Translations under genes and position numbers: made by a program
Notes under the pieces: generated by a model
Database searches by the model: none
What the model was told of the DNA's origin: nothing
What the model saw: only the letters and a program-made list of their open reading frames with translations
Assembly: GCA_964530335.1 (NCBI GenBank)
Contig: CAZGYG010000006.1
Coordinates: forward strand, 2,451-66,450
From: an uncultured Rhodospirillaceae bacterium
GTDB taxonomy: Bacteria; Pseudomonadota; Alphaproteobacteria; SP197
Length of the DNA stretch: 64,000 nucleotides
Direction: 5' to 3'
Part shown: one piece after another, positions 6,936 through 44,463 of the stretch
Layout of the letters: every line of letters begins with the position of its first letter
Numbering within the stretch: the first letter of the stretch is position 1

Positions 6936-7010
6936 AATGCCCTCCGCGAACGACTCGGTTCACTCTTGGCCCGCCTTCGCCGATGGGTCAAGGCGCTCGG
7001 CCGCGCTCGA

Positions 7011-7110
7011 CCCCCGCCCGGGCGCGCGGGCGCGCGTCCCATCGCCGAGCCCGTCCTTGCCCCACCCTCTCACGCCGCTGCTCGCCGGCCTCGCCTCCAT
7101 CTCGGTGCGC
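7011..7110 (+). repeat. Diverged direct-repeat copy A of the upstream region and first about 20 codons of the acyl-CoA synthetase gene (a pseudo-start)
   Basis: cccccgcccgggcgcgcgggcgc (23/23 identical) and atcgccgagcccgtccttgccccaccctctcacgccgctgctcgcc (46/46 identical) are shared with 8029-8140. The copy encodes LPHPLTPLLAG... and terminates after 28 codons. Confidence 0.85.
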
Positions 7111-7281
7111 AGGATCGCCTCGCCCGGACGGATGCCGTAGCCCTCCACCGTCGGCGGGGGCGGCGTCGCGGGCCAGGTCATGGTCAAATGGATTTATTGT
7201 TCCTTGACAACAGTTTGCCGACAGTGGACGGAGCCCCCATGTTTGGGCTACAATGTGGCTCAACATAAGGAGTTCCGGCCC

Positions 7282-7539
7282 ATGAGGACCGTTGTTCGTG
7301 CGCGCATCGATGAGCGGGTGAAGAACGATGCCGCCGCCGTGCTGGCGTCCATCGGGCTTACCGTGTCCGACGCCTTCCGTCTCATGATGGTGCGCATCGC
7401 CACCGAGAAGCGGCTGCCTTTCGAGCCGCTGGTGCCTAATGCGGAGACCATCGAGGCCATGCAGGCCGCCCGGCGCGGCGACGTGGTCACCGTCGGCAGC
7501 GTGGACAACCTGCTGGCGGATCTGAATGCGGACGATTAG
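7282..7539 (+). CDS. dinJ: DinJ/RelB-family type II antitoxin
   Basis: 85 aa (MRTVVRARIDERVKNDAAAVLASIGLTVSDAFRLMMVRIATEKRLPFE) with strong similarity to E. coli DinJ. The locus is locally low in GC. Confidence 0.85.
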   Translation: MRTVVRARIDERVKNDAAAVLASIGLTVSDAFRLMMVRIATEKRLPFEPLVPNAETIEAMQAARRGDVVTVGSVDNLLADLNADD

Positions 7540-7807
7540 ACGCACCACCGCCTTCAAGCGCGACTACAAACGTGAGAAGAAGGGTCGGCATCGCCAGACG
7601 CTCGACGACGAGCTGTCGAAGGCGGTAGGGATGCTCGCCGCCGACGAGCCGCTTCCGCAGCGTTATCACGACCATCTCTTGGCCGGGGAATGGAACGATC
7701 ATCGGGATTGCCACATCAAGCCCGATCTGGTGGTGATTTACCGGAAGCCGGGCGACGAGACGCTCGTTCTGGTGCGCCTCGGTTCTCACAGCGAACTTGG
7801 GGTGTGA
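7526..7807 (+). CDS. yafQ: YafQ/RelE-family mRNA interferase toxin
   Basis: 93 aa (…FKRDYKREKKGRHRQ…LPQRYHDHLLAGEWNDHRDCHIKPDLVVIYR) with strong similarity to E. coli YafQ. Overlaps dinJ by 14 nt. Confidence 0.85.
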   Translation: MRTIRRTTAFKRDYKREKKGRHRQTLDDELSKAVGMLAADEPLPQRYHDHLLAGEWNDHRDCHIKPDLVVIYRKPGDETLVLVRLGSHSELGV

Positions 7808-7849
7808 CCGCTGAGGTCCCCTACCTGTAAGCTCCCGCCGCCGGATTGA

Positions 7850-8029
7850 GGACATATCTCCTCTCCGTTCAAGCGCCGGCGCCAATCCCTCGCCGCGGCC
7901 GATCTTGCGGGACATCAGGCTCTCCATCCGCTCGACGAAAACATCGATCAGCACCTCGCCCGCGGGCCCACGCCGGGTCTCGGTGCGGGCCTGGGTGTTG
8001 GGGACGGTGTTGTAGACGGTCGGCCGCAC
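7850..8029 (-). pseudogene. Possible N-terminal remnant (about 60 codons) of an unidentified gene, lying between the relE stop and repeat copy B
   Basis: The minus-strand ORF begins MRPTVYNTVPNTQARTETRRGPAGEVLIDVFVERMESLMSRKIGRGEG and then runs antisense into relE. Only the first about 60 codons lie outside relE. No family recognised. Confidence 0.2.
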
Positions 8030-8140
8030 CCCCGCCCGGGCGCGCGGGCGCTATAGTCCCGCGTCGCATCGCCGAGCCCGTCCTTGCCCCACCCTCTCAC
8101 GCCGCTGCTCGCCCCCGGCTCGATCGCCTTCGTCGGCGCC
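8029..8140 (+). repeat. Direct-repeat copy B: the genuine upstream region and 5' end of the acyl-CoA synthetase gene
   Basis: See 7011-7110. Contains the TTG start at 8084 (MPHPLTPLLAPGSIAFVGASP). Confidence 0.85.
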
Positions 8141-10153
8141 TCGCCGCGCGAGGGTTCGCTCGGCCACACCATGCTGCGCGTGATCCGGCACGGCGGCTAT
8201 CGCGGCACGATTCACCCGGTCAATCCGAACTACGACCGCATCGAGGACCTGCCCTGCCACCCCTCGCTCGCGGCGATCGGCGAACCGGTCGACCTGGCCG
8301 TGCTGGCCGTCGCGAACAGCCGCATCGAGGCCGCGCTCGAGGAGGCGATCGCCGCCGGGGCCCGCGCCGCCACGATCTTCGCCAGCGGTTATTTGGAGAA
8401 CGACGGCGATCCGCCGCTATTGTCCCGGCTGCGCGAGCTCGCCCGGGCGGCAGGCCTGCCGGTGTGCGGCGGCAACGCCATGGGCTTCTACAACCTGGAC
8501 GCCCGGACGCGGGTGTGCGGGTATTTGAACACGGTCGGCCCCGAGCAGGGCGGCATCGCGTTCATCACCCATTCGGGCTCGGTGTTCAGCGCGTTAGCCC
8601 ACAGCGATCCGCGGCTTGCCTACAACCTGGTCGTGTCGTCGGGCCAGGAGATCGCCACCACCGTTGCGGGCTACGTCGATTACGCGCTCGACCAGGAGAC
8701 CACCCGGGTCATCGGGCTTTTCCTCGAGACGGTGCGCGACGCGCCCGGGTTCCTCGCCGCCGCCGCCAGGGCGCTTGAGCGCCAGGTTCCCATCGTAGTG
8801 CTCAAGGTGGGGGTGGCGGCGGAATCCGCGCGCCTCGCGGTCAGCCATTCCGGAGCCATCGCCGGCGACGACGCCGCCTACGAGGCGGCGTTTGACCGCT
8901 ACGGCATCGTCCGAGTCGCCAGCCTGGACGAGCTGGCCGCGACGCTTCTGCTGCTCGGCCAGCCGCGCCGCGCCCGCGCCGGCGGGCTCGCCGCCATGCT
9001 CGATTCGGGCGGCGAGCGCGGCATGTTGATCGACCTGGCCCAGCGCCACGCCGTACCCTTCGCGGCGATCGCGCCCGCGACCCGCGCCCGGCTCGCCGCC
9101 CGGCTCGATTATGGGCTCGAGCCGGTCAACCCGCTCGACGCCTGGGGCACCGGCAACGACTTCGAAGGGGTATTGCGCGACTGCTTCCTGGCGCTGGCCG
9201 AGGACAAGGACACCGCCGCCGCGGTCATCTTCGCCGACATCCGCGATGCGGGATTCCTGTGCGGTCCCTACGAGCGGGTGCTGCGCCACGTCCACGCCAC
9301 GGTCGGCAAGCCGATCGCGCTGGCGCCCAACTTCTCGGGCGTCGCCCACGGCGAGGTGGCGCTGCGGCTTACCCGCGCCGGCATCCCCGTGCTCGACGGC
9401 ACCGAGAACGCGCTGGCCGCGATCGGGCATCTGTTCCGCCTGCGCGATGCCTGGGCGCGCCCCGAGCCGACGCCGCCGCAAGCCGACGCCGCCGCCGTCG
9501 CGCGCTGGAACGCGCGGCTCGGCAACGGCACGCTCGACGAGGCGGAGGCCCTGACCCTGCTCGCCGAGTTCGGGGTGCCGGCGTCGCCGACCGAGGTGAT
9601 CGACAGCCCCGAGGCCGCGCTCGCCGCCGCCGAACGCTTCGGCTTCCCGGTCGCGCTTAAGACCGCGCAACCGGGGATCGCGCACAAGTCGGACGTCGAT
9701 GGCGTGCGGCTGGGATTGGCCGACGGCGAGGCGCTGATCGCCGCCTACGTCGAATTGGCCGCGCGGCTGGGCCGGCGCATGGTCGTGGCGCCCATGGCCG
9801 GGCCGGGCGTCGAGCTCGCGTTTGGATTGGTGACCGACGCGCAGTTCGGCACGCTGGTCATGGTCGGCGCCGGGGGTACGCTGATCGAGGTGCTGCGTGA
9901 TCGCGTGGTCGCCTTGCCGCCGTTCGACCGCGCGACCGCACGGCGGCTGATCGACCGGCTCGCGCTTCGCCACTTGCTGGGGGGTGTGCGCGGCCGGCCG
10001 CCGGCCGATGTCGAGGCGCTGGCCGAGGCGTTCGCGCGGTTCTCGGTGCTGGCGGCCACTCTCGGCCCCCGCGTGGCCGAGATCGACGTCAACCCGGTGA
10101 TCTGCGGGCCACGAGGGCCCCTCGCCGTCGACGCCCTGGTGGTCGCCCGCTAA
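8084..10153 (+). CDS. Acyl-CoA synthetase, NDP/ADP-forming (acetate--CoA ligase [ADP-forming] family; CoA-binding, SCS-like and ATP-grasp domains)
   Basis: 689 aa with an N-terminal CoA-binding domain (IAFVGASPREGSLGHTML), a central ligase-CoA domain and a C-terminal ATP-grasp domain (GFPVALKTAQPGIAHKSDVDGVRLGL). Confidence 0.8.
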   Translation: MPHPLTPLLAPGSIAFVGASPREGSLGHTMLRVIRHGGYRGTIHPVNPNYDRIEDLPCHPSLAAIGEPVDLAVLAVANSRIEAALEEAIAAGARAATIFASGYLENDGDPPLLSRLRELARAAGLPVCGGNAMGFYNLDARTRVCGYLNTVGPEQGGIAFITHSGSVFSALAHSDPRLAYNLVVSSGQEIATTVAGYVDYALDQETTRVIGLFLETVRDAPGFLAAAARALERQVPIVVLKVGVAAESARLAVSHSGAIAGDDAAYEAAFDRYGIVRVASLDELAATLLLLGQPRRARAGGLAAMLDSGGERGMLIDLAQRHAVPFAAIAPATRARLAARLDYGLEPVNPLDAWGTGNDFEGVLRDCFLALAEDKDTAAAVIFADIRDAGFLCGPYERVLRHVHATVGKPIALAPNFSGVAHGEVALRLTRAGIPVLDGTENALAAIGHLFRLRDAWARPEPTPPQADAAAVARWNARLGNGTLDEAEALTLLAEFGVPASPTEVIDSPEAALAAAERFGFPVALKTAQPGIAHKSDVDGVRLGLADGEALIAAYVELAARLGRRMVVAPMAGPGVELAFGLVTDAQFGTLVMVGAGGTLIEVLRDRVVALPPFDRATARRLIDRLALRHLLGGVRGRPPADVEALAEAFARFSVLAATLGPRVAEIDVNPVICGPRGPLAVDALVVAR

Positions 10154-10226: not shown

Positions 10227-11153
10227 ATGTCCGTTCCCGGCCTGATCGCCAACCCGGTGCCGTGGCCCAACGGCGCCCGGGTCGCCGCGTGCTTCAGCTT
10301 CGACATGGACGGCGAGAGCCTGATGCACATCGCCCACCCGACCGACGCGAACAAGCGCGTCAGCGGGCTTTCCGAGCTGCGCTACGGGCCCACCGTCGGC
10401 GTGCCGCGGCTGCTGAATATCTTCGCGCATTTCGGCATCAAACAGACGTTCTTCGTGCCCGGCTGGTGCGCCGAACGCTACCCGGCGGCGGTCGAGGCGA
10501 TCCTCGATGCCGGCCACGAGATCGGCCACCACGGCTATCTGCACGAGGACCCCAACACGCTCGGCCGGGCGGACGAGCGCTACTGGACCGAGCGCGGGCT
10601 CGCCGCGCTGGTCAAGGCCACGGGGAAGAAGCCGGTCGGCTATCGCGCGCCGTCGTTCGCTTTCTCCGACGCCACCCTCGACATCCTGCTCGACCTCGGT
10701 TTCGCCTACGACGCCTCGCTCATGGGCGACGACGTGCCCTACCTGGTCGGCAACGGCAAAGCCGACCTGGTCGAACTGCCCTCGCCCATGGCCATGGACG
10801 ACTGGCCCCACTACATGCACTCGTTCGATTTCGCCGGCACGGCCAACCAAATCTCCGCGCCCGAGCGCGCGTTCGCCGTGTTCCGTTCCGAGTTCGAGGC
10901 CCAGTGGGAGCACGGCGGGCTGTGGATCGCCGTGTGGCACCCGTTCATCTCGGGCCGCCTGCCGCGCGCCATCGCCATGGCGGCGATGATCGAGGACATG
11001 ATGAAGAAGGGCGGCGTGTGGTTCGCCACGCTGGCCGAGATCGCGGCCCACGTGCGCAAGGTCACGGCGTCGGGCGCATGGAAACCCCGGGTCGAGCGGC
11101 TGCCGTTCTACGATGCCAGCCCAATCCCCGAGCTTAGGCGCGCGGCGGAGTAG
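10227..11153 (+). CDS. Polysaccharide deacetylase family protein (NodB homology domain; PuuE-like)
   Basis: 308 aa with NodB motifs (CFSFDMDGESL; GHEIGHHGYLHE; RAPSFAF). Confidence 0.8.
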   Translation: MSVPGLIANPVPWPNGARVAACFSFDMDGESLMHIAHPTDANKRVSGLSELRYGPTVGVPRLLNIFAHFGIKQTFFVPGWCAERYPAAVEAILDAGHEIGHHGYLHEDPNTLGRADERYWTERGLAALVKATGKKPVGYRAPSFAFSDATLDILLDLGFAYDASLMGDDVPYLVGNGKADLVELPSPMAMDDWPHYMHSFDFAGTANQISAPERAFAVFRSEFEAQWEHGGLWIAVWHPFISGRLPRAIAMAAMIEDMMKKGGVWFATLAEIAAHVRKVTASGAWKPRVERLPFYDASPIPELRRAAE

Positions 11154-11157
11154 GCGC

Positions 11158-12066: not shown

Positions 12067-13208
12067 TGGAGCCGATCGCCACCATCCCCAACCCGGACCT
12101 CGCGGTCGGCACCGACAACAAGGCCCGCTGGAACCTGCCGGACCACCGGCGGCACGGCTTCCACAACCTGCACACCCTCGCCCGCTACGGCATGAGCTTC
12201 CGCGCCGCGCGGGTGATGACGCTTTCCAAGCGCATGGACATGCGCATCCCCGAGCTGCCCGAGGTGCGGCGGCTGACCTCGCTGCCCTGGTTCTCGGCCA
12301 TGGTGGTGATCCGGGGCCAGCACATCCTCTACGAGCGCTACGCGCCCGACTTCGGCCCCGACCGGCCGCACAACATCCAGTCGATCAACAAGACCGTGCT
12401 GAACCTGGCGGTCGGCCGCCTAGTCGAGGACGGCAAGATCGACGTCGGCCGCAAGGTGAAGGAGTACCTGCCCGAGATCGGTTCGGGCTACGCCGAGGCG
12501 ACCGTCCAGCAGGTCCTCGACATGGACGTGGCCAACGACTACACCGAGGACTTCACCGATCCGAACTCGACGTACTGGACCCACGAGGAGGCCATGGGCT
12601 GGCGCTTGCCGCGCGACCCGGCCCGCGAGGAGACCCAGAAATCCTTCGTCGTCCGCATCCGGAGCGACGACGTGACGAACCGGCTCGACCACATCCAGTA
12701 CAAGGACGCGAACAGCGTGGTGCTGGGGTGGATCGTCGAGCGGGTCGGCGGCCGGCCCTGGCGGGCGATTTTCGCCGACATCGCCGACGCGGCCGGGATC
12801 GAGGGCGTGCTCCACACCACCACCGACCGCGAGGGCTTCCCCACTCTGGAGGGCGGGGTCTGCATCACCGCCCGCGACCTCGCCCGCTACGCCGCGATCT
12901 TCGTCCGCCGGGGCCAGGGTGTCGATGGCCGCGCCGTCGGCAGCGCCCTGTTCATCGAGCGGAGCCTGGCCGCCGGCGTGCGGCTGGCCCCGCCGCGCGA
13001 GCACCTGCGCTACAGCAACCAGCTCAACACCGACGGCCGCTGGATCGGCCACGGCGGCTACGGCGGCCAGTACATGCTGGCGGACCTGACCAGCGGCGTG
13101 ATCGGCGTGTTCTTGAGCGTGGTCGAGGACAAGGACGGCTACCCCCTGCCCTACTACCCCCCGCTCATCGCCATGCTGGCCGAGATCGCACGGCTGGACG
13201 ACGCATGA
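12066..13208 (+). CDS. Beta-lactamase-fold serine hydrolase (class C beta-lactamase-related / 6-aminohexanoate-dimer-hydrolase-like)
   Basis: 380 aa with an S-x-x-K active-site motif (IQSINKTV). Start overlaps the upstream stop (TGATG). Confidence 0.75.
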   Translation: MEPIATIPNPDLAVGTDNKARWNLPDHRRHGFHNLHTLARYGMSFRAARVMTLSKRMDMRIPELPEVRRLTSLPWFSAMVVIRGQHILYERYAPDFGPDRPHNIQSINKTVLNLAVGRLVEDGKIDVGRKVKEYLPEIGSGYAEATVQQVLDMDVANDYTEDFTDPNSTYWTHEEAMGWRLPRDPAREETQKSFVVRIRSDDVTNRLDHIQYKDANSVVLGWIVERVGGRPWRAIFADIADAAGIEGVLHTTTDREGFPTLEGGVCITARDLARYAAIFVRRGQGVDGRAVGSALFIERSLAAGVRLAPPREHLRYSNQLNTDGRWIGHGGYGGQYMLADLTSGVIGVFLSVVEDKDGYPLPYYPPLIAMLAEIARLDDA

Positions 13209-13321
13209 ACGCCGCGGCTCCCTGGGACGCGTCCGATCCGCTCGCAAGCAAGCCTGTGCCGCGCCAGGGCGCCGATCCTTACTTGCGCGACGGGGCGCAT
13301 CTGACGCACACCTCGCCTTAG
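13205..13321 (+). repeat. Diverged duplicate of the 5' end of the HpaB-family gene (a pseudo-start, 38 codons)
   Basis: Encodes MNAAAPWDASDPLASKPVPRQGADPYLRDGAHLTHTSP* (compare MPNELPWKTPDPLVGKPVPRAGADPYLRDGAQY at 13780). About 80% nucleotide identity over about 70 bp. Its ATG overlaps the hydrolase stop (ATGA). Confidence 0.85.
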
Positions 13322-13626
13322 GCGGCCGCCCCCGCGGCCCTTGGCAAGCCCCTGATCTCCTTGCCCACGGCGCGCTCGGCCATCACCAGGTCGAGCTGGG
13401 CTTGCAGGTTCATCCAGAACTGGGGGTTGGTCCCGAACCAATGCCCGAGGCGCAAGGCCGTGTCCGCGGTTATGCCGCGCTTGCCCTGAATCAGTTGCGT
13501 CACTCGGTTGGGCGGTACTCGGAGCCGGCGGGCGAGCTCGGTCGGCGTGATGCCAAGCTCGCCCAACTCGTCCTTGAGCACCACGCCTGGGTGAATTCCT
13601 ACCCTCAACACGGTCTTTCCCTTCAT
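13318..13626 (-). CDS. higA: HigA-family antitoxin (XRE-type HTH; addiction-module antidote protein)
   Basis: MKGKTVLRVGIHPGVVLKDELGELGITPTELARRLRVPPNRVTQLIQGKRGITADTALRLGHWFGTNPQFWMNLQ is the canonical HigA motif set. Start chosen at the internal Met (13626) of the 13318..13686 ORF. Confidence 0.8.
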   Translation of the reverse strand: MKGKTVLRVGIHPGVVLKDELGELGITPTELARRLRVPPNRVTQLIQGKRGITADTALRLGHWFGTNPQFWMNLQAQLDLVMAERAVGKEIRGLPRAAGAAA

Positions 13627-13826
13627 CGGTGATAGTCCACGATCTCGACGTTGACCGGGCCTACGGCGTCGGATCGACATTGCCACTCATCTCCGCAGTT
13701 ATTCCGCTCGCCATACAGATACGATCCGATGCTGCGAGTCTTAAGGCTCGACTCCCGTAACCCACTCCGGACTCTTCCCATGCCCAACGAACTTCCGTGG
13801 AAGACCCCCGACCCTCTGGTCGGCAA
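13623..13826 (-). pseudogene. Degenerate higB (RelE/ParE-fold toxin, PF05015-like) remnant; only the C-terminal about 30 residues are recognisable
   Basis: C-terminus ...LYGERNNCGDEWQCRSDAVGPVNVEIVDYHR* matches the HigB C-terminal consensus (...LKGDR...W.I.F...DVEIVDYH). The N-terminal two thirds are unrecognisable and overlap the hpaB start. Overlaps the higA start (ATGA). Confidence 0.45.
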
Positions 13827-15276
13827 GCCGGTGCCGCGCGCGGGCGCCGACCCTTACTTGCGCGACGGCGCGCAGTACCGGGAATCGCTCCGCGACGGGC
13901 GCACGGTGATCGTGGCCGGGCGCGACGTGGCGGACGTGACGGCGGAACCGGGGCTCAAGCGCGGCATCGATACCCTGGCCGGGCTGTTCGACGCGCAGTT
14001 CGATCCGGTGCACCGCGACGTGACCACGGCGATCGACCCCGAGAGCGGCGAGCGCATCGCCACCGGCTGGCTGGTGCCGCGCACCGTCGACGATCTCAAG
14101 CGCCGCAGCCGGATGATCAAGTTCTCGACCCAGCGCACCTTCGGGGTGTTCGGCCGCCCGCCCGATTACGGCACGGTCAACCCGATCGGCTTCCTGGCCT
14201 TCGCCCACCTGATCGCGAAGGAGGACAGCGAGGCGCGCGCCAAGATCGAACGCTGCGTGCGCGTCGGCCAGCGCCACAACCTGGTCTCGACCGACATCAT
14301 CGTCGACGTCCAGGCCAACCGGAAGCTCACGGGCGCCGAGCTGCCGGGCCGGCTGCGCGTCATCGAGCGGCGCAAGGACGGCGTCGTGCTGTACGGCGCC
14401 AAGGCCGGCAACTCGGTGCTGGCCCAGGGCAACATGGGTTCGCTCGCCACCATCCTGAACCCGACGCTGCCAGACGACTGCGCGATCCTGGCCGCGCTGC
14501 CGGCCAACGCGCCGGGACTCAAGCTCTTGCTGCGCGAGGCCGTGACCCGGGGCGACGAGGATCCCGACGACCATCCGCTCGACGCCCAGGGCGAGGAGGC
14601 CGACGGAATCCTGATCTTCGACCGGGTGTTCGTGCCCGACGAGTACGTGTTCAGCGTCGGCAACCGCAAGGTGCTCGAGTATTACCACCTGATCGGCCAG
14701 CTCGCGTTCTGGAACATCGCGTCGCGCCTCGGCTACCGGGCCGAGATCTTCGCCGGCGCGGTCCAGCTCATCGTCAACGTGCTGGGCACCGACCACGTCC
14801 CCGCCGTGCGCGCCGCCGTGACCGAGGTGATCGGCTACGCCAGCGCGCTGCGCGCCTTCATGGTCGCCGCCGAGGAGAAGGCGAGCCCGACCGAGACCGG
14901 GGTGATGCTGCCGGACCACGCGCTGGTCACCGCCGGGCGGCTGCACTCGATCGTCGAGTACCCGCGCGTCATGCAGGTGCTGCGCGAGCTGTCGGGCCAG
15001 GGGTTGGTCAGCCGCGTGCCGCGCAAGACCTGGGAGCGCGCCGACCTCGGCCCCATGCTCGATGAGTTCCTTCCCGGGTTCGAGACCAGCGCGCGCGACA
15101 AGAACCGGCTGTTCAACCTGATCTGGGACCTGACGTGCAGCGCCCACGCCATGCGCGTCGCCATCTTCGAGAACGTCAACGCGACCCCGGCCTCGACGCT
15201 GCGCGAGGAGCTCTACAAGGTCTACGACCGCTCGGAGGGCATCGCCGTGGTCAAGCGCCTGGCCGGCATGGCTTGA
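13780..15276 (+). CDS. HpaB-family flavin-dependent monooxygenase (4-hydroxyphenylacetate 3-monooxygenase oxygenase-component family)
   Basis: About 498 aa from the ATG at 13780 (MPNELPWKTPDPLVGKPVPRAGADPYLRDG...), with HpaB N- and C-terminal domains. Confidence 0.75.
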   Translation: MPNELPWKTPDPLVGKPVPRAGADPYLRDGAQYRESLRDGRTVIVAGRDVADVTAEPGLKRGIDTLAGLFDAQFDPVHRDVTTAIDPESGERIATGWLVPRTVDDLKRRSRMIKFSTQRTFGVFGRPPDYGTVNPIGFLAFAHLIAKEDSEARAKIERCVRVGQRHNLVSTDIIVDVQANRKLTGAELPGRLRVIERRKDGVVLYGAKAGNSVLAQGNMGSLATILNPTLPDDCAILAALPANAPGLKLLLREAVTRGDEDPDDHPLDAQGEEADGILIFDRVFVPDEYVFSVGNRKVLEYYHLIGQLAFWNIASRLGYRAEIFAGAVQLIVNVLGTDHVPAVRAAVTEVIGYASALRAFMVAAEEKASPTETGVMLPDHALVTAGRLHSIVEYPRVMQVLRELSGQGLVSRVPRKTWERADLGPMLDEFLPGFETSARDKNRLFNLIWDLTCSAHAMRVAIFENVNATPASTLREELYKVYDRSEGIAVVKRLAGMA

Positions 15277-15334
15277 TCCCCCTCGTTCCGGAGCCATAGT
15301 ATCCCGCCGGCGTGCCGATTCGCGAGGGGAAGTC

Positions 15335-17116
15335 ATGGAATCAGGAGGGGAGCGCCGGGTCGAGCGCCGCCTTGCCGCGATCCTGGCCGCCGACGTGGCC
15401 GGCTACAGCCGGCTCATGGGCGTCGACGAGGAGGGCACGCTCGCGCAATTGAAGGGCCATCGGCGCGCCCTCGTCGACCCCAAGATCACGGAACACCGCG
15501 GGCGGATCGTCAAAACCACCGGCGACGGCATGCTGGTGGAGTTCGCCAGCGTGGTCGACGCCGTGCGTTGCGCCGCCGAAATTCAACGCGGCATGGTCGA
15601 GCGCAACGTCGACGTGCCGCCCGATCGGCGCATCGAGTTCCGCGTCGGCATCAACGTCGGCGACATCATCATCGACGGCGACGACATCTTCGGCGACGGC
15701 GTCAACATCGCGGCGCGCCTGGAAACCCTCGCCGCGCCCGGCGAAGTCTGGGTCGGCCGCACGGTTCGGGAGCAGGTGCGCGACAAGCTCGCGTTCGATT
15801 TCGAGGACATGGGCGAGCGCGAGGTCAAGAACATCGCCCGGCCGATCAAGGCCTATCGCATCGTGGCCAAGGAGCCCGTCACCGGCCCGGCCGCGGGTGT
15901 GGCGGACGCACCGTCGCTGCCGGTCAAATCCTCGATCGCCGTCCTGCCCTTCACCAACATGTCGGGCGATCCCGAGCAGGAATACTTCGCCGACGGCATG
16001 GTCGAGGACATCATCACCGCCCTGTCCCGGTTCAACCAGTTGTTCGTGATCGCCCGCAACTCGAGCTTTACCTACAAGGGCCGGGCGGTCGACGTGCGCC
16101 AGGTGGCCAAGGAGCTGGGCGTGCGCTTCGTGCTGGAAGGCAGCGTGCGCAAGGCGGGCAACCGCGTGCGCATCACCGGGCAGTTGATCGATGCCGCGAC
16201 CGGCGCCCATCTCTGGGCGGACCGGTTCGACGGTGGCCTGGAGGACGTCTTCGACCTCCAGGACAAGATCACCGCAAGCGTCGTCGGGGCGATCGAACCG
16301 ACCCTGCGCAAGGTGGAGATCGAACGCGCACGGCGCCGGCCCATCGAGAACCTCGATGCCTACGATCTCTATCTTCGCGCCTTGCCGCACGTCTACGCGT
16401 TTCGCCCAGACGACAATCGCCAGGGCTTCGAGCTGCTCCTGAAGGCGATCGACCTCGATCCCACCTATGCGCCGGCGCTGGCCTATGCCGCCTGGTGCCT
16501 CGAACAGCGCATCGTGCGGGGCTGGCCGCCGATCGGAGAGGACGACACAGGCACGGCGATCGCCCTCGCACGACGGGCGGTCGCCGCCGGTAGTGGCGAT
16601 GCGATGGCCTTGGTCGCCGCCGGGTTTGTCCTGGTGATGGTGGCGCGGGACTATGACACCGGCCTCGACGCCGTGCGCCGCGCGCTCGCGCTCAACCCCG
16701 GCTCCGGGTTCGTCACGTTCGTCTCGAGCGGCGCGCTGCTGTTCAGTGGCAATGCGGACGAGGCGTTGGTCCATATCGAACGGGCCATGGCCCTCAGCCC
16801 CTTGGATCCCGGCTTTTTCATGTACCTGGCCATCGCCGGTCTTGCCCACCTCGCGAACGGCCGCCCCGAGCAGGCCTTGCAACTGGGCAAGAAGTCGGCG
16901 GCCCTTTACCCCGACTGGGACACCGCCTACTGGCTCCTGGTCCCCGCGCATGTCCAACTCGGCAATCTGGGGGAGGCGCAGGCCGCGCTTGCCAGGCTCG
17001 TGGCCCTGACACCCGGAATGACGGTGTCCGGTACCCGCCGGCGTTTTCCGATCAGGAACCAGGAATTCTTGAACATGGTGCTCGACGGTCTCCGCGCGGC
17101 TGGCCTGCCGGAATGA
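15335..17116 (+). CDS. Class III adenylate/guanylate cyclase with a C-terminal TolB-like/TPR regulatory region
   Basis: N-terminal CHD cyclase domain (LAAILAADVAGYSRLMG...IVKTTGDGMLVEF...GINVGDII...GDGVNIAARLE) followed by about 400 aa of TPR-like helical repeats. Confidence 0.85.
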   Translation: MESGGERRVERRLAAILAADVAGYSRLMGVDEEGTLAQLKGHRRALVDPKITEHRGRIVKTTGDGMLVEFASVVDAVRCAAEIQRGMVERNVDVPPDRRIEFRVGINVGDIIIDGDDIFGDGVNIAARLETLAAPGEVWVGRTVREQVRDKLAFDFEDMGEREVKNIARPIKAYRIVAKEPVTGPAAGVADAPSLPVKSSIAVLPFTNMSGDPEQEYFADGMVEDIITALSRFNQLFVIARNSSFTYKGRAVDVRQVAKELGVRFVLEGSVRKAGNRVRITGQLIDAATGAHLWADRFDGGLEDVFDLQDKITASVVGAIEPTLRKVEIERARRRPIENLDAYDLYLRALPHVYAFRPDDNRQGFELLLKAIDLDPTYAPALAYAAWCLEQRIVRGWPPIGEDDTGTAIALARRAVAAGSGDAMALVAAGFVLVMVARDYDTGLDAVRRALALNPGSGFVTFVSSGALLFSGNADEALVHIERAMALSPLDPGFFMYLAIAGLAHLANGRPEQALQLGKKSAALYPDWDTAYWLLVPAHVQLGNLGEAQAALARLVALTPGMTVSGTRRRFPIRNQEFLNMVLDGLRAAGLPE

Positions 17117-17151
17117 TGGGTCCAATGTAGGGTTCTCGATGACGACGACGG

Positions 17152-17265
17152 GTCGCCATCTTCGAGAACGTCAACGCGGCCTCGACGCTGCGCGAGGAGC
17201 TCTACAAGGTCTACGACCGGTCGGAGGGCATCGCCGTGGTCAAGCGCCTGGCAGGCATGGCGTGA
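17152..17265 (+). repeat. Near-identical duplicate of the last about 115 bp of the HpaB-family gene (a pseudo-3' end)
   Basis: gtcgccatcttcgagaacgtcaacgcg...ggcatcgccgtggtcaagcgcctgg...atggc.tga matches 15157-15276 at about 97% identity, apart from a 6-bp in-frame deletion. It is in frame: VAIFENVNAASTLREELYKVYDRSEGIAVVKRLAGMA*. Confidence 0.9.
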
Positions 17266-17272
17266 ACACCCG

Positions 17273-20019: not shown

Positions 20020-20045
20020 GTTGCGGTAAACCTTCTCCCTGCGGG

Positions 20046-20073
20046 CGCGACGGCGGATGCTCCCGCCGTCGCG
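20046..20073 (+). terminator. GC-rich hairpin after the M20 peptidase gene (putative intrinsic terminator without a clear U-tract)
   Basis: cgcgacggcgg-atgctc-ccgccgtcgcg, a perfect 11-bp stem with a 6-nt loop, 27 nt downstream of the stop codon. Confidence 0.35.
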
Positions 20074-20137
20074 GGTGGCGAGCGGAGCGAGCCGGATGAG
20101 GGACCTTACGCACCGGTCACGAACACAGGGCGCAACC

Positions 20138-21178: not shown

Positions 21179-21277
21179 GGGGGGCGGTCGGAGTGCCGTC
21201 GTGGCGCACGAAGATGCGGGCCCGGCTTGGTCGCCTGATGCTGAGAATGAAGGGTGCTCACTAAGGAGGAGGTAACC

Positions 21278-22747: not shown

Positions 22748-22797
22748 ATGAGCGCCGGCCCATCGTGCGCGGCCACCGCCTCGGCGTACGATGATCC

Positions 22798-22869
22798 GAG
22801 GTGCGGCTGAACGCGCCGGTGCCGGGCGCGGCGCTTACCGCGACCGCCGCGCTTACGTGACCGCACCTC
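22798..22869 (+). other. Long imperfect hairpin between Sel1 paralogues 2 and 3
   Basis: gaggtgcgg ... ccgcacctc arms enclose about 55 nt containing internal cgcttac direct repeats. It lies immediately upstream of the signal-peptide-less third paralogue. Confidence 0.4.
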
Positions 22870-39367: not shown

Positions 39368-39838
39368 ATGGACGGCGACCGGCAGCTCCTGGTCGTCGCC
39401 CACGCGCCGTCGGCCAACACCCGCCGGCTGATCGAGGCGGTCGAGGACGGCATCCGGTCGGCCGAGGCGGCGAGCGTGCGCTGGCGGGTCATGCGCCCGT
39501 TCGACGCCGGGCCCGACGACGTGCGCGGCGCCCGCGCGATCATCCTGGGGACGACCGAGAACCTCGGCTACATGAGCGGGGCGCTCAAGGACTTCTTCGA
39601 CCGCGTCTATTACCCGTGCCTCGAGCACACCCAGGGACTGCCCTACGCGCTCGTCATCCGCGCCGGGCACGACGGCACCGGCACGCGGCGCGGCGTCGAG
39701 ACCATCGTGACGGGCTTGCGCTGGCGCGCGGTGCAGGAGCCCGTGGTCCTGAGGGGCCCGTGGCAGGAGGCGTTCCTCGAGCCCTGCCGGGAGCTCGGCG
39801 CCGCGATGGCCGCCGGGCTCGACGCCGGGGTGTTCTGA
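39368..39838 (+). CDS. Flavodoxin-like fold protein (NAD(P)H-dependent FMN reductase / flavodoxin family)
   Basis: 156 aa; LLVVAHAPSANTRRL...AIILGTTENLGYMSGALKDFFDR fits a flavodoxin-like fold. Confidence 0.55.
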   Translation: MDGDRQLLVVAHAPSANTRRLIEAVEDGIRSAEAASVRWRVMRPFDAGPDDVRGARAIILGTTENLGYMSGALKDFFDRVYYPCLEHTQGLPYALVIRAGHDGTGTRRGVETIVTGLRWRAVQEPVVLRGPWQEAFLEPCRELGAAMAAGLDAGVF

Positions 39839-39911
39839 AACCCCCTCGCCCTTGGCACGGGCGATCGATTATGGTGCTCGCCCGCGCCACCCGGAAGGAA
39901 CGATTGCCGCC

Positions 39912-41216
39912 ATGAACCAGCGTTACGACGCCATCGTCATCGGGGCCGGCGTGATCGGCGCCTGTGTCGCCTTCGAGCTGGCCAAGAAGGGCTGGAAGAC
40001 GCTCAGCGTCGACAAGAACGCGAGCGCGGGCTACGGCTCGACCTCGGCCAGTTGCGCGATCATCCGCACCTACTATTCGGTCTACGAGACCTGCGCGATT
40101 TCGTACGAGGGCTGGTTCTACTGGAAGGATTGGCCCGGCTACCTGGGCGTCGCCGACCCGCGCGGCATGGCGGTCTATCACGACACCGGCTGCCTGGTGG
40201 TCAAGACCGGGCACAACAAGGGGCTCGGCCACATCGCGGAAATCATGGACCGCATCGGCTGCCCCTACCAACACCTGACGCCCGACGAGATGAAGGCGCG
40301 CCTGCCGATCATCGACCTGCACGAGTTCGGCCCGGCCAAGCGCCCCGAGGACCCGGGGTTCGGCGAGCCGAGCGGCGGGCTGCTGGCGGGCGGCGTGTTC
40401 TTTCCGCGCGGCGGCTACGTGTCGGACCCGGCGCTCAGCGCCCAGAACGCGGAATGCGCGGCCAAGTCCAAGGGCGCCGAGTTCCGCTACCGCGCCGAGG
40501 TCGTCGCGGTGCGCCGGGCGAAGGGCCGCGTCGCCGGCGTGACGCTGGCAGACGGAGCCGAGATCGACGCCCCCGTGGTCGTCAACGTCGCGGGACCGCA
40601 CTCGGCCAAGATCAACCAGATGGCCGGCGTGTTCGACGCCATGAAGATGAAGACCCGGGCGCTGCGCCACGAGGTCGCCCACGTGCCCTCGCCCCAGGGC
40701 TTCGATTTCGAGGCGCGCGGCATGGTCTACTCCGACAGCGACATCGCGACCTACTGCCGGCCCGAGCTCGGCAACCACATCCTGATCGGGTCCGAGGACC
40801 CGGCGTGCGACAAGCGCGAATGGGTCGACCCGGACGATTTCAACCGCGAGTTCACCGAGCAGTGGCGCGTGCAGGCGCTGCGCCTGGCCCAACGCTTCCC
40901 CGAGCTGCCCATCCCCTCGCGCATGAAGGGCGTGGTCGACCTCTACGACGTGACCGAGGACTGGATCCCGATCTACGACCGCACCGACCTGGACGGCTTC
41001 TACGTCGCCATCGGCACCAGCGGCAACCAGTTCAAGAACGCGCCGGTCGCCGGCAAGATGATGACGCGGCTGATCGAGGCGTGCGAGGCCGGCCACGATC
41101 ACGACCGCGACCCGGTCGTGTTCCACCTCGACCACATCGGCCACGACGTCACGGTCGGGTTCTTCTCGCGCAACCGCGAGGTCAATCCCAACTCGAGCTT
41201 CTCGGTGCTCGGCTGA
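39912..41216 (+). CDS. FAD-dependent oxidoreductase (DAO family; sarcosine-oxidase-beta / amino-acid-oxidase-like)
   Basis: N-terminal GxGxxG (YDAIVIGAGVIGACVAFELAKKG) and DAO-domain length (434 aa). Confidence 0.75.
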   Translation: MNQRYDAIVIGAGVIGACVAFELAKKGWKTLSVDKNASAGYGSTSASCAIIRTYYSVYETCAISYEGWFYWKDWPGYLGVADPRGMAVYHDTGCLVVKTGHNKGLGHIAEIMDRIGCPYQHLTPDEMKARLPIIDLHEFGPAKRPEDPGFGEPSGGLLAGGVFFPRGGYVSDPALSAQNAECAAKSKGAEFRYRAEVVAVRRAKGRVAGVTLADGAEIDAPVVVNVAGPHSAKINQMAGVFDAMKMKTRALRHEVAHVPSPQGFDFEARGMVYSDSDIATYCRPELGNHILIGSEDPACDKREWVDPDDFNREFTEQWRVQALRLAQRFPELPIPSRMKGVVDLYDVTEDWIPIYDRTDLDGFYVAIGTSGNQFKNAPVAGKMMTRLIEACEAGHDHDRDPVVFHLDHIGHDVTVGFFSRNREVNPNSSFSVLG

Positions 41217-41469
41217 ACCTCCTAATGCGCATTCCGATCGCGTGGAAGCGTGCTCCGTCCACCCCCTTCGACGCCGCCTGCGGCGTCGCTCAGGACAGGC
41301 TTCAAGACGCGGCCCTGCGGGCGTGGCGGCGGTTGCTCCCGCCCCCACACCTCAGGGCGAACGGGCAAGAGAAACAGACGTTCGTGGTGAGGAGGCGCGA
41401 AGCGCCGTCTCGAACCACGGACTGCGTCACGCACCCCGGTGATCCCATGGGATCGAAACCTGCTGTACA

Positions 41470-41530
41470 ACGGGGGACCCACGCATGAAGAGCCACGCCC
41501 GCGTCGTCGTGATCGGCGGCGGTGGTCGGA
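41470..41530 (+). repeat. Pseudo-start: diverged copy of the RBS and first about 15 codons of the dimethylglycine-dehydrogenase-like gene
   Basis: cgggggacccacgcATGAAGAGCCACGCCCGCGTCGTCGTGATCGGCGGCGGTG versus agggggcccacgcATGAAGTCCCACGCCCGCGTGGTCGTGATCGGCGGCGGTG at 42033-42085, about 90% identical. Confidence 0.85.
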
Positions 41531-41582
41531 AAGCTACGGTACCGGGGGTGCGGCTTGCGGGGAAGCGGAGGAGCGACGCCAC

Positions 41583-41822
41583 ATGAGCGAAGACGACAGC
41601 AGCGAGCCTACCGCCGCTGAGCAAGGAGCTTTCTCCAGGGTCCACGATGTCGTCGACGAGATGGTGGGTCGGGAGGGCCACCCCGCGGTTGAGGTGGGTC
41701 GAGGGATCCTCACCGCCGCGGTCGTCTGTCTAAGGAAGGCCCTCCCCGACGAAGAGGTCGCGAAACTGCTCTATGGCTTGGCGGACGGGTGGGCCACGTC
41801 GCGGTTCGAGCGAGAGCGATGA
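41583..41822 (+). CDS. Hypothetical small acidic protein (79 aa; possibly DUF2267-like)
   Basis: RBS ggaggag lies 9 nt upstream. MSEDDSSEPTAAEQGAFSRVHDVVDEMVGREGHPAVEVGRGILTAAVVCLRKALPDEEVAKLLYGLADGW... shows weak resemblance to DUF2267 helices. Confidence 0.35.
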   Translation: MSEDDSSEPTAAEQGAFSRVHDVVDEMVGREGHPAVEVGRGILTAAVVCLRKALPDEEVAKLLYGLADGWATSRFERER

Positions 41823-41835
41823 CCCTCCGTTGCGG

Positions 41836-41871
41836 CGATGGCGGCCGGGCTCGACGCCGCAGTGTTCTGAG
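41836..41871 (+). repeat. Pseudo-3' end: copy of the last about 36 bp (including the stop) of the flavodoxin-like gene at 39803-39838
   Basis: gcgatggcggccgggctcgacgccgcagtgttctga versus gcgatggccgccgggctcgacgccggggtgttctga, 33/36 identical. Confidence 0.75.
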
Positions 41872-41911
41872 TATCCGAGCGAGAATAGCGGGACCATTAA
41901 CGTGTTCAGCC

Positions 41912-41998
41912 GTCATGACCGGGCGAAGTCCCGGTCATCCACGCCGTTGGACCAGAGAAGACGTGGATGCCCGGCACGAGGCCGGGCATGACGGTTCC
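41912..41998 (+). repeat. REP-like tandem hairpins (family 2)
   Basis: atgaccgggcgaagtcccggtcat followed by gtggatgcccggcacgaggccgggcatgacggttcc. The second hairpin recurs at 46147-46182 as gtggatgcccggctcaaggccgggcatgacgattcc. Confidence 0.65.
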
Positions 41999-42045
41999 GG
42001 GTTTGCATCCGTCGGTGTCGCACCAATAGTAAAGGGGGCCCACGC

Positions 42046-44463
42046 ATGAAGTCCCACGCCCGCGTGGTCGTGATCGGCGGCGGTGTCGTTGGCTGCTCGG
42101 TGCTCTACCACCTGACCAAGCTCGGCTGGAGCGACGTCATGCTGGTCGAGCGCTCCGAGCTCACGTCCGGCTCGACCTGGCACGCGGCGGGCGGGTTTCA
42201 CACGCTGAACGCCGACACCAACATGGCGGCGCTGCAGGGCTACACCATCCGGCTCTATCGCGAGCTCGAGAAGATCTCCGGCCAGTCGTGCGGCCTGCAC
42301 CACGTCGGCGGCGTGACGCTGGCGACCACGCGCGACCGCTTCGACTACCTCAAGGCCGAGCGCGCCAAGCACCGCTACATGGGGCTCGAAACCGAGATCA
42401 TCGGGCCGGACGAGGTCAAGAAGTTCTCGCCGATCACCAACATCGAGGGCGTGCTCGGCGCCTTGTACGACCCGCTCGACGGGCATTTGGACCCGGCGGG
42501 CACGACCCAGGCCTACGCCAAGGCCGCGCGCATGGGCGGCGCCGAGATCGTGCTGCGCAACCCGGTGGTCGAGACCAACCCGCGCGCCGACGGCGGCTGG
42601 GACGTGGTGACGCGGGACGGCACGATCCAGGCCGAGCACGTGGTCAACGCCGGCGGCCTGTGGGCGCGCGAGGTCGGCCGTTTGGCCGGCGTCTACTTCC
42701 CCGTCCATCCCATGGAGCACCAGTACCTGGTGACCGAGGCGACGCCCGAGGTCTACGAGCGCGACCACGAGCTGCCCCACGTTCTGGACCCGGAGGGGGA
42801 GAGCTACCTGCGCCAGGAAGGCCAGGGCCTTGTGATCGGCTTCTACGAGCAGGGTTGCGAGTTCTGGTCGGTCGACGGCACGCCCGCCGGCTTCGGCCAC
42901 GAGCTGCTGGAGAACAAGCCGGACCGCATCGGCGACGCGGTCGAGTTCGCGTTCCGCCGCTACCCGGTGCTCCAGCGCGCCGGCATCAAGCGCACGATCA
43001 ACGGCCCGTTCACGTTCTCGCCGGACGGCAACCCGCTGGTCGGGCCGGTGCCGGGCTTGCGCAACTACTGGTCGGCGTGCGCGGTCATGGCCGGGTTCAG
43101 CCAGGGCGGCGGCGTCGGGCTCAGCCTCGCCGAGTGGATGATCGAGGGCGAGCCGTCGCGCGACGTGTTCGCCGCCGACGTCGCCCGCTTCGGGCCGTGG
43201 ATCACGCCGGGCTACACCCGCGCCAAGGTGCGCGAGACCTACCAGCGCCGGTTCTCGGTGTCGTACCCGAACGAGGAGCTGCCGGCGGCGCGCCCGTTCC
43301 GCACCACGCCGGCCTACGCCCTGTGGCAGGGCCGGCGCGCGGTGTTCGGCGCCGCCTACGGCATGGAGGCGGTCAACTACTTCGCGCCCGAGGGCGAGGC
43401 GTTGTTCGAGACGCCGAGCTTCCGCCGCTCCAACGCCTTCGCCGCGACCGGAGCGGAATGCCGTGCCGTGCGCGAGGGCGTCGGCCTCAACGAGATCCAC
43501 AACTTCGGCAAGTACCTGGTGACCGGGAAGGACGCGCGCGCCTGGCTCGACCGCATCATGGCCGGGCGCCTGCCGGCGATTGGACGGCTGAGCCTGACGC
43601 CCATGCTGAGCCCGAAGGGCCGGATCATCGGCGACTTCACCGTCTCCGGGATCGCCGAGACGACGTTCCAGCTCACCGCCTCGTTCGGCGCCCAGGCGTT
43701 CCACACGCGCTGGTTCGAACGGCACCTGCCCGCGGGCGACGTGGCGGTCGAGAACGTGTCGACCCGGCGCCTCGGCTTCCAGATCGCCGGGCCGAAGGCG
43801 CGCGATCTGCTGGCCCGGGTCGCGCGCGCCGACGTGTCCAACGCGGCGTTCCCGTTCATGGCCGTGCGCGAGCTCGAGATCGGCGTGTGCCGGGCGCTGG
43901 TCCAGCGCGTGTCCTACACCGGCGACCTCGGTTACGAGATCTACGTGCCGGCCGAGGATCAGGTCGCGCTTTACGGGATCCTGACCGCCGCGGGCGCCGA
44001 CCTGGGGCTCAAAGCGTTCGGCATGCGCGCGATGATGAGCCTGAGGCTCGAGAAGTCGTTCGGTTCGTGGCTGCGCGAATACAAGCCCGAATACATGCCG
44101 GCCGAGACCGGGCTCGACCGCTTCGTCGCCTACAACAAGCCGGTCGATTTCATCGGCAAGGCCGCGGCGATGAAGGAAAAGTCGGCCGGGCCCAGCCGCC
44201 GGCTGGCGACCTTCGTGGTCGATGCCAAGGACGCCGACGTGGCGGGCTACGAGCCGATCTGGCACCAGGGCAAGGTGGTCGGCTTCGTCACCTCGGGCGG
44301 CTACGCGCACTACGTCGGAAAATCGGTCGCGCTCGGCTTCCTGCCCGTGGAGCTCGTCGCCGAGGGTCAGAACGTCGAGATCGAGATCCTGGGCGAGCTG
44401 CGCCCGGCGCGCATGATCACCCGGCCGTTGTTCGACCCCGACGCCAAGCGCCTGCGCGGCTGA
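42046..44463 (+). CDS. Dimethylglycine/sarcosine dehydrogenase-family enzyme (FAD DAO domain plus GcvT-like folate-binding domain)
   Basis: 805 aa with an N-terminal dinucleotide-binding site (VVVIGGGVVGCSVLYHL), a histidine probably covalently linked to FAD (SGSTWHAAGG) and a C-terminal aminomethyltransferase fold. Confidence 0.85.
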   Translation: MKSHARVVVIGGGVVGCSVLYHLTKLGWSDVMLVERSELTSGSTWHAAGGFHTLNADTNMAALQGYTIRLYRELEKISGQSCGLHHVGGVTLATTRDRFDYLKAERAKHRYMGLETEIIGPDEVKKFSPITNIEGVLGALYDPLDGHLDPAGTTQAYAKAARMGGAEIVLRNPVVETNPRADGGWDVVTRDGTIQAEHVVNAGGLWAREVGRLAGVYFPVHPMEHQYLVTEATPEVYERDHELPHVLDPEGESYLRQEGQGLVIGFYEQGCEFWSVDGTPAGFGHELLENKPDRIGDAVEFAFRRYPVLQRAGIKRTINGPFTFSPDGNPLVGPVPGLRNYWSACAVMAGFSQGGGVGLSLAEWMIEGEPSRDVFAADVARFGPWITPGYTRAKVRETYQRRFSVSYPNEELPAARPFRTTPAYALWQGRRAVFGAAYGMEAVNYFAPEGEALFETPSFRRSNAFAATGAECRAVREGVGLNEIHNFGKYLVTGKDARAWLDRIMAGRLPAIGRLSLTPMLSPKGRIIGDFTVSGIAETTFQLTASFGAQAFHTRWFERHLPAGDVAVENVSTRRLGFQIAGPKARDLLARVARADVSNAAFPFMAVRELEIGVCRALVQRVSYTGDLGYEIYVPAEDQVALYGILTAAGADLGLKAFGMRAMMSLRLEKSFGSWLREYKPEYMPAETGLDRFVAYNKPVDFIGKAAAMKEKSAGPSRRLATFVVDAKDADVAGYEPIWHQGKVVGFVTSGGYAHYVGKSVALGFLPVELVAEGQNVEIEILGELRPARMITRPLFDPDAKRLRG

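Follow-up and report, generated by a model that had tools for sequence, protein, structure and literature searches.

The window analysed here, 64 kb of chromosomal DNA from an uncultured alphaproteobacterium (contig CAZGYG010000006.1; 70% G+C), contains five places where the start or the end of an ordinary gene is present twice, as a pair of direct repeats with additional DNA of 0.3-2.0 kb (the cargo) between the two copies. The duplicated gene ends are best read, with a probability put at about 0.6, as scars left where linear foreign DNA, in pieces of 0.3-2 kb, was added to the chromosome by insertion that was independent of any recombinase and not the work of a mobile element. The loci of the window are designated L1 to L4 and L4b, and labels with three digits (L034, L047, L141 and so on) refer to comparison contigs.

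To locate the repeats, a repeat finder, pairwise alignments and a BLAST of the whole window against itself were used; in this self-comparison the five pairs gave E-values of 3e-7 to 3e-45. All five pairs are in direct orientation, with copies of 39-129 nt that share 79-98% identity; every one lies across a start or stop codon, and each is present in the window in two copies only. Self-BLAST of the window returned no local inverted repeat of comparable strength, and the remaining strong matches were two paralogous deacetylase genes, Sel1 repeats and short elements resembling repetitive extragenic palindromes (REP). One further pair, at 34027/35642, reflects a motif conserved between two SDR paralogues and was not counted as a gene-terminus duplication. 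The original prediction, made from the sequence alone, had described four loci in which a short cargo lies between a decayed and an intact copy of a neighbouring gene end; all four were recovered where it had placed them, with the shared architecture, and the intact copy indeed restores the coding gene (ACS-like, 8084-10153; HpaB, 13780-15276; DMGDH-like, 42046-44463; and the FMN_red gene, 39368-39838). The fifth pair, L4b, had been missed. The cargo genes named in that prediction were likewise recognised as RelB and a YafQ/RelE-type toxin, a HigA antitoxin with a truncated higB, an adenylate/guanylate cyclase with TPR repeats and a small open reading frame (ORF). Coordinates of the features are given in Table 1.

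Locus L1 is the most completely resolved. By BLAST the pair extends over 6991-7086 and 8014-8113 with 84% identity and two indels, and its core (7033-7086 and 8060-8113) is 98% identical; without the junction microhomology, the duplicated target consists of 7010-7086 (77 nt) and 8028-8113. DNA homology between the cargo and contigs L143 and L144 extends from 7215 to 8033 and ends at the right junction, and homology to contigs L145-L154 extends from 7084 to 7807 and begins at the left junction. The flanking gene runs on past the junction point in these contigs, so that each L1 junction is a truncation within a gene. Three prophage contigs from IMG/VR (L159-L161) have the intact order of a tape-measure gene (853 aa), relE and relB, and a virion gene (164 aa). 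From the ends of homology, the truncated flanks and this prophage order, the L1 cargo is identified as a 0.94-kb segment from inside a prophage tail module, with a toxin-antitoxin moron; the nearest homologues of its relBE genes are found in prophage or IS630 contexts. The right end of the cargo meets the target through a microhomology, TCGGCCGC..ACC (8020-8030), and this is the sole junction that could be rebuilt from both parents: the donor (L143) reads ...GACGGTCGGC(T/C)GCACC|ACCAC, the target reads ...TCGGCCGCGCTCGACC|CCCGCCC, and the product switches from one to the other inside TCGGCCGC..ACC. The intact copy contains a 9-nt segment, CTATAGTCC (8050-8058), with a TATAGT box resembling a -10 element about 28 nt 5' of the ACS start. 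The segment is missing from the remnant (at 7033), which has therefore either lost 9 nt or stems from another allele; L141 has TAATAT in place of the TATAGT box. A 73-aa gene at 6960-7187 (minus strand), called by JGI pipelines in L135-L137, is a chimera in which 32 phage virion codons run into the antisense strand of the ACS remnant, and is an annotation artefact made by the scar.

Loci L2 and L3 lie at the two ends of a single HpaB gene. The L2 copies are 79% identical overall and 90% identical over a 52-nt core, and their cargo is an intact higA gene (13318-13626) with a 3' remnant of higB, of which the last 20 codons or so (13629-13688) are clear and the part up to about 13745 looks decayed (20-40 codons in all); the end of the cargo thus falls inside higB. 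The L3 copies are 91% identical with a single in-frame indel of 6 nt. Homology between the L3 cargo and contig L156 continues past the cyclase stop, through the ribosome-binding site (RBS) and for about 10 nt (ATGACGACGA, 17139-17148) into the next gene of L156, and ends where the HpaB remnant begins. The closest orthologues of the cyclase stand in unrelated neighbourhoods, after infC or beside other unrelated genes. In the relative L047 (HpaB 88% identical in amino acids, DNA about 85%) the beta-lactamase-like gene and HpaB overlap stop-to-start, exactly as in the L2 remnant, and HpaB is followed by an unrelated small gene, with neither a cyclase nor a second HpaB end, so that L047 provides single-copy empty sites for both L2 and L3. 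Sliding-window identity of HpaB against three relatives gave no clear mosaic, a comparison that is uninformative at 84-87% identity, and exact-protein look-ups for HpaB and the beta-lactamase-like gene returned no record. An orphan HpaB 5' fragment, cut after about residue 90, occurs in metagenome contig L127 (613-858); a deacetylase gene lies 5' of it, and unrelated genes in convergent orientation come after it.

Locus L4 is more complex. The L4 copies are 92% identical and their coding differences are all synonymous (AGC/TCC for Ser, GTC/GTG for Val). They are interleaved with L4b, a 90% identical duplication of the 3' end of the FMN-reductase-like gene, here G1. From left to right the locus consists of the G1 end, G2, a spacer rich in REP elements, a remnant G3 start (G3 being the DMGDH-like gene), the small ORF, a remnant G1 end, a 163-nt spacer and the intact G3 start. 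The remnant G1 end, spacer and G3 form a compact 'G1-G3' junction behind a 'G1-G2-G3' version, and the two versions are concatenated. Interleaved repeats are not what a simple insertion leaves, and the earlier description of this locus as the insertion of a small ORF is contradicted by the second pair. A small conserved family of 74-81-aa proteins without known function (25 cluster representatives) includes the 79-aa ORF; G2, which has a host-like G+C content at third codon positions (GC3), may also be part of the added DNA. GC-rich palindromic intergenic repeats, resembling REP or miniature inverted-repeat transposable elements (MITE), occur in the window at 20037-20102, 41313-41430, 41958-41998, 45951-45979 and 46142-46182 (examples are gttcgtggtgaggaggcgcgaagcgccgtctcgaaccacg and gtggatgcccggc.caaggccgggcatgacg) and also in the related metagenome-assembled genome (MAG) L001 (15460-15504 and 15895-15941). 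Two of them sit in the spacers of locus 4, and a Logan contig breaks at one (41969).

Table 1. Features of the duplicated gene ends and the DNA between them (window coordinates)
Locus	Feature	Coordinates	Strand	Remarks
L1	Remnant copy: upstream region and first 10 ACS-like codons	6991..7086	+	True target copy 7010-7086
L1	Cargo, left end: codons 1-32 of a phrog_384-family phage virion structural gene	7087..7181	-	Truncated at junction
L1	Cargo: relB (7282-7539) and yafQ/relE-type toxin gene (7526-7807)	7282..7807	+	
L1	Cargo, right end: final ~57 codons of a tape-measure gene of a phage tail	7808..8027	-	Frameshifted
L1	Intact copy: ACS upstream region and ACS start	8028..8113	+	Start TTG at 8084
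L2	Remnant: original HpaB start	13205..13299	+	ATG overlaps beta-lactamase-like stop (as in L047); cut after codon 31
L2	Cargo: intact higA and 3' remnant of higB	13300..13779	-	
L2	Intact copy: functional HpaB 5' end	13780..13874	+	
L3	Intact copy: last 40 HpaB codons, stop codon and 6 nt more	15154..15282	+	
L3	Cargo: cyclase-TPR gene (15335-17116) and 3' stretch	15283..17148	+	
L3	Remnant of HpaB 3' end	17149..17271	+	Four synonymous differences; in-frame 6-nt deletion; stop retained
L4b	Intact copy: 3' end of FMN-reductase-like gene G1	39800..39838	+	
L4/L4b	G2, DAO-family FAD oxidoreductase	39852..41216	+	Between the two G1-end copies
L4	Remnant: 12 nt upstream (RBS region) and first 13 codons of DMGDH-like G3	41473..41524	+	
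L4	Cargo: 79-aa ORF (41583-41822)	41525..41831	+	GC3 0.76
L4b	Remnant of G1 3' end	41832..41870	+	Directly 5' of the 163-nt spacer to G3
L4	Intact copy: functional start of G3	42034..42085	+	

The cargoes are random fragments and not cassettes, because their ends fall at arbitrary points inside donor genes, terminal inverted repeats are absent (the longest terminal inverted word is 3-6 nt) and no motif is shared above chance. The single 7-mer common to three junctions (CCTCGCC) was equalled in 62% of random trials, and Pfam scanning of 42 ORFs of the window, which are ordinary metabolic and envelope genes together with three tandem Sel1-repeat genes, revealed no integrase or transposase; the earlier statement that neither recombinase genes nor a common junction motif are visible therefore holds. 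The GC3 of the cargo genes is 0.76-0.87 vs 0.91-0.98 for their host neighbours. BLAST of the cargoes against phage and plasmid collections gave distant toxin-antitoxin matches only, and a search for donors in which a cargo once stood beside its target gene found none, the homologues of relBE and the cyclase standing elsewhere in context. Several familiar sources can be set aside on these grounds: integron cassettes (no attC-like inverted repeat, no motif above chance, no integrase in the window); an insertion sequence, transposon or MITE (no terminal inverted repeats, and duplications of 39-129 nt vs the 2-14 bp expected); an intact integrative element with a tyrosine recombinase, such as a prophage, island or integrative and mobilizable element (no integrase in the window, and cargo ends internal to tail genes at L1 or to chromosomal genes at L2 and L3); and tandem duplication followed by decay, which cannot explain foreign cargo of lower GC3.

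The scar signature is not unique to this genome, yet five in 64 kb is dense. When the same filter was run over other loci fetched from diverse bacteria, 1.50 Mb in all, 17 direct and 3 inverted matches passed, mostly weak, among which three were clear gene-terminus cases (one in L141 and two in L034), vs five in the 64-kb window; a pair in L018 consists of two small paralogous genes and a pair in L001 is a REP-like element. In the syntenic MAG L141 (GCA_040905845.1, JBBDQV010000199.1) a 192-nt direct duplication of the NeuB 5' end and its upstream region (2756-2947 and 3760-3951, 93% identical) flanks an 84-aa ORF and the C-terminal part of an IS256-family transposase, to which the NeuB remnant is fused in frame. 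A ParA-like gene and AT-richer DNA occupy what is left of the NeuB-ACS spacer of L141. This foreign DNA differs from that in the same spacer of the window, which marks the spacer as an insertion hot spot in two lineages. In L034, a first pair of 70 nt (3034-3103 and 4053-4122), from the 3' end of a beta-lactamase-like gene, flanks a merB-like ORF, and a second pair of 102 nt (4134-4235 and 4963-5064), from the 3' end of a convergent 2-hydroxyacid dehydrogenase gene, flanks a stretch without recognisable genes. The two L034 remnants are 11 nt apart and resemble a fossil of the original convergent junction.

The differences between the copies suggest a separate lineage of origin for each copy at some loci. 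Counted as synonymous and non-synonymous codons, they are 4 and 0 at L3 (with the in-frame 6-nt indel and the stop kept), 2 and 0 at L4, 2 and 1 at L4b, 3 and 2 at L034-A, and 7 and 10 at L2; the L034-B copies both have a stop codon (TAA vs TGA), and at L141 about 2 synonymous and 5 non-synonymous changes were read by eye. Under neutral decay of one copy, with the other kept under selection, about 40% of changed codons are expected to be synonymous (authors' estimate), and 11 of the 14 changed codons in four short pairs (L3, L4, L4b and L034-A) are synonymous (rough binomial P ~0.005). The original prediction had taken copy identity as a measure of the age of each event, which is unsafe, because the divergence at L3, L4 and L4b looks allelic and not like decay. 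The derivation of the DNA from diverged relatives, which it had also proposed, is borne out in part, by the mostly synonymous differences at these three pairs and the in-frame indel of L3.

Scars of this kind are known as 'insertion with long target duplication', and the suggestion that the window records a possibly uncharacterised route of gene gain could not be upheld, since such insertions have already been described for restriction-modification genes (PMC2853133, citing Nobusato et al. 2000). According to that paper (Furuta, Abe & Kobayashi 2010, NAR, PMC2853133), which cites Nobusato et al. (2000, Gene 259:99), repeats of >30 to about 420 bp, often spanning start or stop codons, surround restriction-modification genes without mobility genes at nine to about twenty loci in Helicobacter, Haemophilus, Neisseria, Burkholderia, Microcystis and others; the inserts are <20 kb, the repeats are unique in the genome, one copy is present at the empty site of a relative, several phyla are represented and the mechanism is unknown. 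The five pairs of the window likewise are direct repeats longer than 30 bp around small inserts (<20 kb), are not multicopy, keep the target gene intact and have no linked mobility gene; a single copy at an empty site could be identified for L2 and L3 (in L047, at about 85% DNA identity), and no empty site is at hand for L1 and L4. The cargo differs from that of the original screen, being two toxin-antitoxin modules (relBE, and higA with a higB remnant), a signalling cyclase (cyclase-TPR), the 79-aa ORF and perhaps an oxidoreductase in place of restriction-modification genes. Further differences are that a cargo is here seen to be a random fragment of a donor locus, that the copies are 79-98% identical and partly allele-like whereas the published pairs are mostly >90% identical, and that the density is unusual. 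New here are thus the types of cargo, the recognition of one as a random internal prophage fragment, one fully reconstructed microhomology junction and the local density.

Under the favoured reading, insertion of linear foreign DNA, a fragment from a prophage, another chromosomal operon or a diverged relative would join the chromosome at one or both ends by illegitimate recombination guided by microhomology. Two joints made 40-130 nt apart in the target would place the interval between them on both sides of the insert. The restriction of the scars to gene termini would then reflect survivorship, because a packed genome tolerates an insertion only when the duplicated interval spans a start or stop and one copy rebuilds the gene. 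At L3, at L4 and L4b and perhaps at L2, one copy probably came with the incoming DNA, by homology-facilitated illegitimate recombination (HFIR). In this variant a homologous crossover in the gene body would anchor the fragment, its other end would join illegitimately 'behind' the anchor, and the resident gene end would be displaced as an orphan. Locus 4 could have arisen in one event that joined two haplotypes and a filler fragment, either through HFIR or through a single crossover of a circle of about 560 nt. The joining chemistry and the identity of the resident copy are matters on which we infer rather than observe, and three candidate chemistries are considered: HFIR, which would account for allele-like copies and orphan ends; Ku/LigD-dependent capture through non-homologous end joining (NHEJ) at a widely staggered break; and replicative template switching in which re-entry lies upstream of the exit.

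HFIR was reportedly described by de Vries and Wackernagel in 2002, Prudhomme and colleagues in 2002 and Meier and Wackernagel in 2003. HFIR adds foreign DNA through one homologous anchor and one microhomology joint, a combination that may also apply to loci of the window; these resemble its products in the orphan gene end kept downstream and in the allele-like copies. A GC-rich microhomology of the type seen at HFIR joints is present at the L1 right junction, and the frame-preserving, mostly synonymous differences at L3, L4, L4b and L034 would fit an intact gene end that came from the donor. Experimental demonstrations of the process are confined to naturally transformable species and E. coli conjugation, and L1 and L3 bear no sign that the cargo stood beside the target gene in the donor. 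It has been called on to explain orphan 3' ends and immunity genes in type VI secretion system (T6SS), Rhs and contact-dependent inhibition (CDI) arrays (Kirchberger et al. 2017, PMC5361080), which are polymorphic toxin loci, whereas the targets here are ordinary metabolic genes. Capture of heterologous fragments by NHEJ has been demonstrated in Sinorhizobium meliloti, also an alphaproteobacterium (Dupuy, Sauviac & Bruand 2019, NAR, PMC6379672), where a linear foreign fragment is ligated into a break with neither homology nor a recombinase and the joints show small deletions or microhomology, sometimes with several fragments in tandem. The breaks in S. meliloti were made with I-SceI, which leaves 4-nt overhangs, and no long target duplication was reported, whereas a stagger of 40-130 nt as proposed here would need widely spaced nicks or a replicative step. 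Integron cassettes and tyrosine-recombinase islands that restore their target gene's 3' end resemble the scars in their small and often toxin-antitoxin cargo, in the duplicated gene end flanking the insert and in the restored target, and differ from them in that here there is no attC or att core and no integrase, the repeat length varies, both gene ends are used and the cargo ends lie inside truncated genes.

Several observations weigh against the insertion of linear fragments as proposed. One junction only has been rebuilt from both parents, and HFIR at L1 and L3 needs a cargo already beside the target gene in the donor, which nothing supports (the cyclase orthologues stand in unrelated contexts). 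The order at locus 4 (G1-end, G3-start, G1-end, G3-start) needs two haplotypes and a filler, or two events. The changes at L2 and L141 are mixed and compatible with plain decay, and the bias towards synonymous changes is suggestive only, because the codons are few (14) and the grouping was chosen after the data were seen. No near-identical strain without an insert was found (the closest matches in a scan of genome contigs were 78-88% identical in amino acids, and two metagenome scans gave none and at best 61%), and the nearest relatives are 85-88% identical, so that the two copies may or may not have been identical when the insertion took place. No duplication flanks the VapBC-like module at 57767-58392 (an ORF of 80 aa and a PIN-domain gene of 128 aa that overlap by 4 nt, GC3 0.75-0.78, between SDR and DUF1244 genes), which means that not every small cargo has a scar.

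Among the alternatives, Campbell-type integration, to which the original prediction had likened the pattern, fares best and is still unlikely. A small circle carrying the cargo and a gene-end patch of 40-130 nt would integrate by a single homologous crossover in the patch; a relative with an earlier insertion could have given rise to the circle, through excision between the direct repeats. This agrees with the direct repeats around the cargo and with the allelic-looking divergence at L3, L4 and L4b, the interleaved L4 is obtainable by one crossover of a ~560-nt circle (small ORF, G1 end, spacer and G3 start), and a similar life cycle of insertion, amplification via the repeats and release was proposed by Kobayashi's group (PMC2853133). 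The circle itself, however, would require an illegitimate event, as the junctions between cargo and patch lie inside phage or other genes; RecA works very poorly on patches of 39-77 nt at 90% identity, such a circle would lack replication and transfer functions, transformation and gene transfer agents deliver linear DNA, and no circular form was observed. Such integration might spread an existing scar as a secondary step, but it cannot be the primary origin of those junctions that lie inside phage genes.

Degraded integrative elements are an improbable source. A tyrosine recombinase would have inserted each element into a gene end together with a replacement end (att duplication), and later deletions would have left a toxin-antitoxin module or a single gene. 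Integrases commonly target and restore gene ends, the L1 cargo is phage DNA with an addiction module of a kind that resists loss, and foreign DNA is also present in the NeuB-ACS spacer of L141. At each locus, however, two deletions would have had to stop precisely where the inner edge of either att copy lies, the L1 piece is from mid-way in a tail module and not from a phage end, L3 is a single gene of chromosomal type with no phage trace, and the repeats vary in length and identity, with no common core and no integrase in the window. A dedicated gene-end-targeting system, its recombinase encoded elsewhere in the genome and moving defined small cassettes, would fit five events in 64 kb, all at gene termini, and the same type of scar in two other alphaproteobacterial MAGs, but it is very improbable. 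The cargoes have no defined ends and are truncated pieces of unrelated donor loci, and they have neither a shared motif nor an inverted repeat or attC-like structure; both 5' and 3' ends serve as targets, the duplications range from 39 to 192 nt, and survivorship alone explains the position at gene ends. The earlier proposals of excised gene cassettes and of a gene-end-targeting element accordingly fail on the arbitrary points at which cargo ends cut donor genes.

Least credible is an assembly artefact in which two co-existing strain alleles were concatenated, as might be feared because the window is a MAG contig, the copies differ like alleles of two strains, and L2 and L4 are in no second assembly (L157 starts at 41969). 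L1 and L3 were reproduced, junctions included, in independent assemblies from other samples and pipelines at 99.7-100% identity: contig L135 spans both L1 copies, L138 both junctions of the L1 cargo and L139 both L3 copies. The supporting contigs derive from three JGI metagenomes (3300010391, 3300048079 and 3300048080) and one Logan assembly (SRR6155503), and their few single-nucleotide polymorphisms are confined to flanking host genes, which indicates a slightly different strain with the same structure. Moreover, the inserts hold unique foreign DNA that cannot be created by concatenating alleles, and similar structures occur in unrelated MAGs.

The closest relatives of the window in genome and metagenome collections are alphaproteobacterial MAGs with 78-90% amino-acid identity, and an Rfam scan returned a single match, a tRNA (tRNA-Glu). 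The three Sel1-repeat genes (20057-24088) stand in tandem, consist of 108-nt (36-aa) units with 72-82% mutual identity and dominate the self-similarity map of the window. The adjacent polysaccharide-deacetylase genes (10240-11104 and 11156-12017) are 68% identical paralogues from an old tandem duplication, and in L141 two small ORFs lie between them. Two intergenic imperfect palindromes, at 24190-24401 (212 nt) and 47069-47227 (159 nt) and 68-74% self-complementary, are probably nested REP-like elements or terminator clusters.

The mechanism of 'long target duplication' has been open since 2000, and at L1 the donor (a prophage tail module), the target and the product can be aligned, giving a microhomology junction and a 77-nt stagger with which models of it can be tested. 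For annotation, short ORFs such as that at 6960-7187 (minus strand) and gene fragments beside intact genes in MAGs can be scars, and not genes or assembly errors. A bolder reading is that this lineage, and perhaps many uncultured Alphaproteobacteria, gains genes systematically by a dedicated or favoured break-repair pathway (candidates being Ku/LigD capture at nicks that are widely staggered, and replicative template switching) that takes in random sub-2-kb fragments with target duplications of 40-200 nt, at about one scar per 13 kb. This is decidedly doubtful; if true, horizontal gene gain would have a major recombinase-free route that has gone unrecognised, and Kobayashi's 'long target duplication' would have its missing mechanism. 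If the insertions described here are general, small accessory genes such as toxin-antitoxin modules, signalling genes and orphan ORFs would enter compact chromosomes without mobile-element machinery, leaving scars that can be read from sequence alone.

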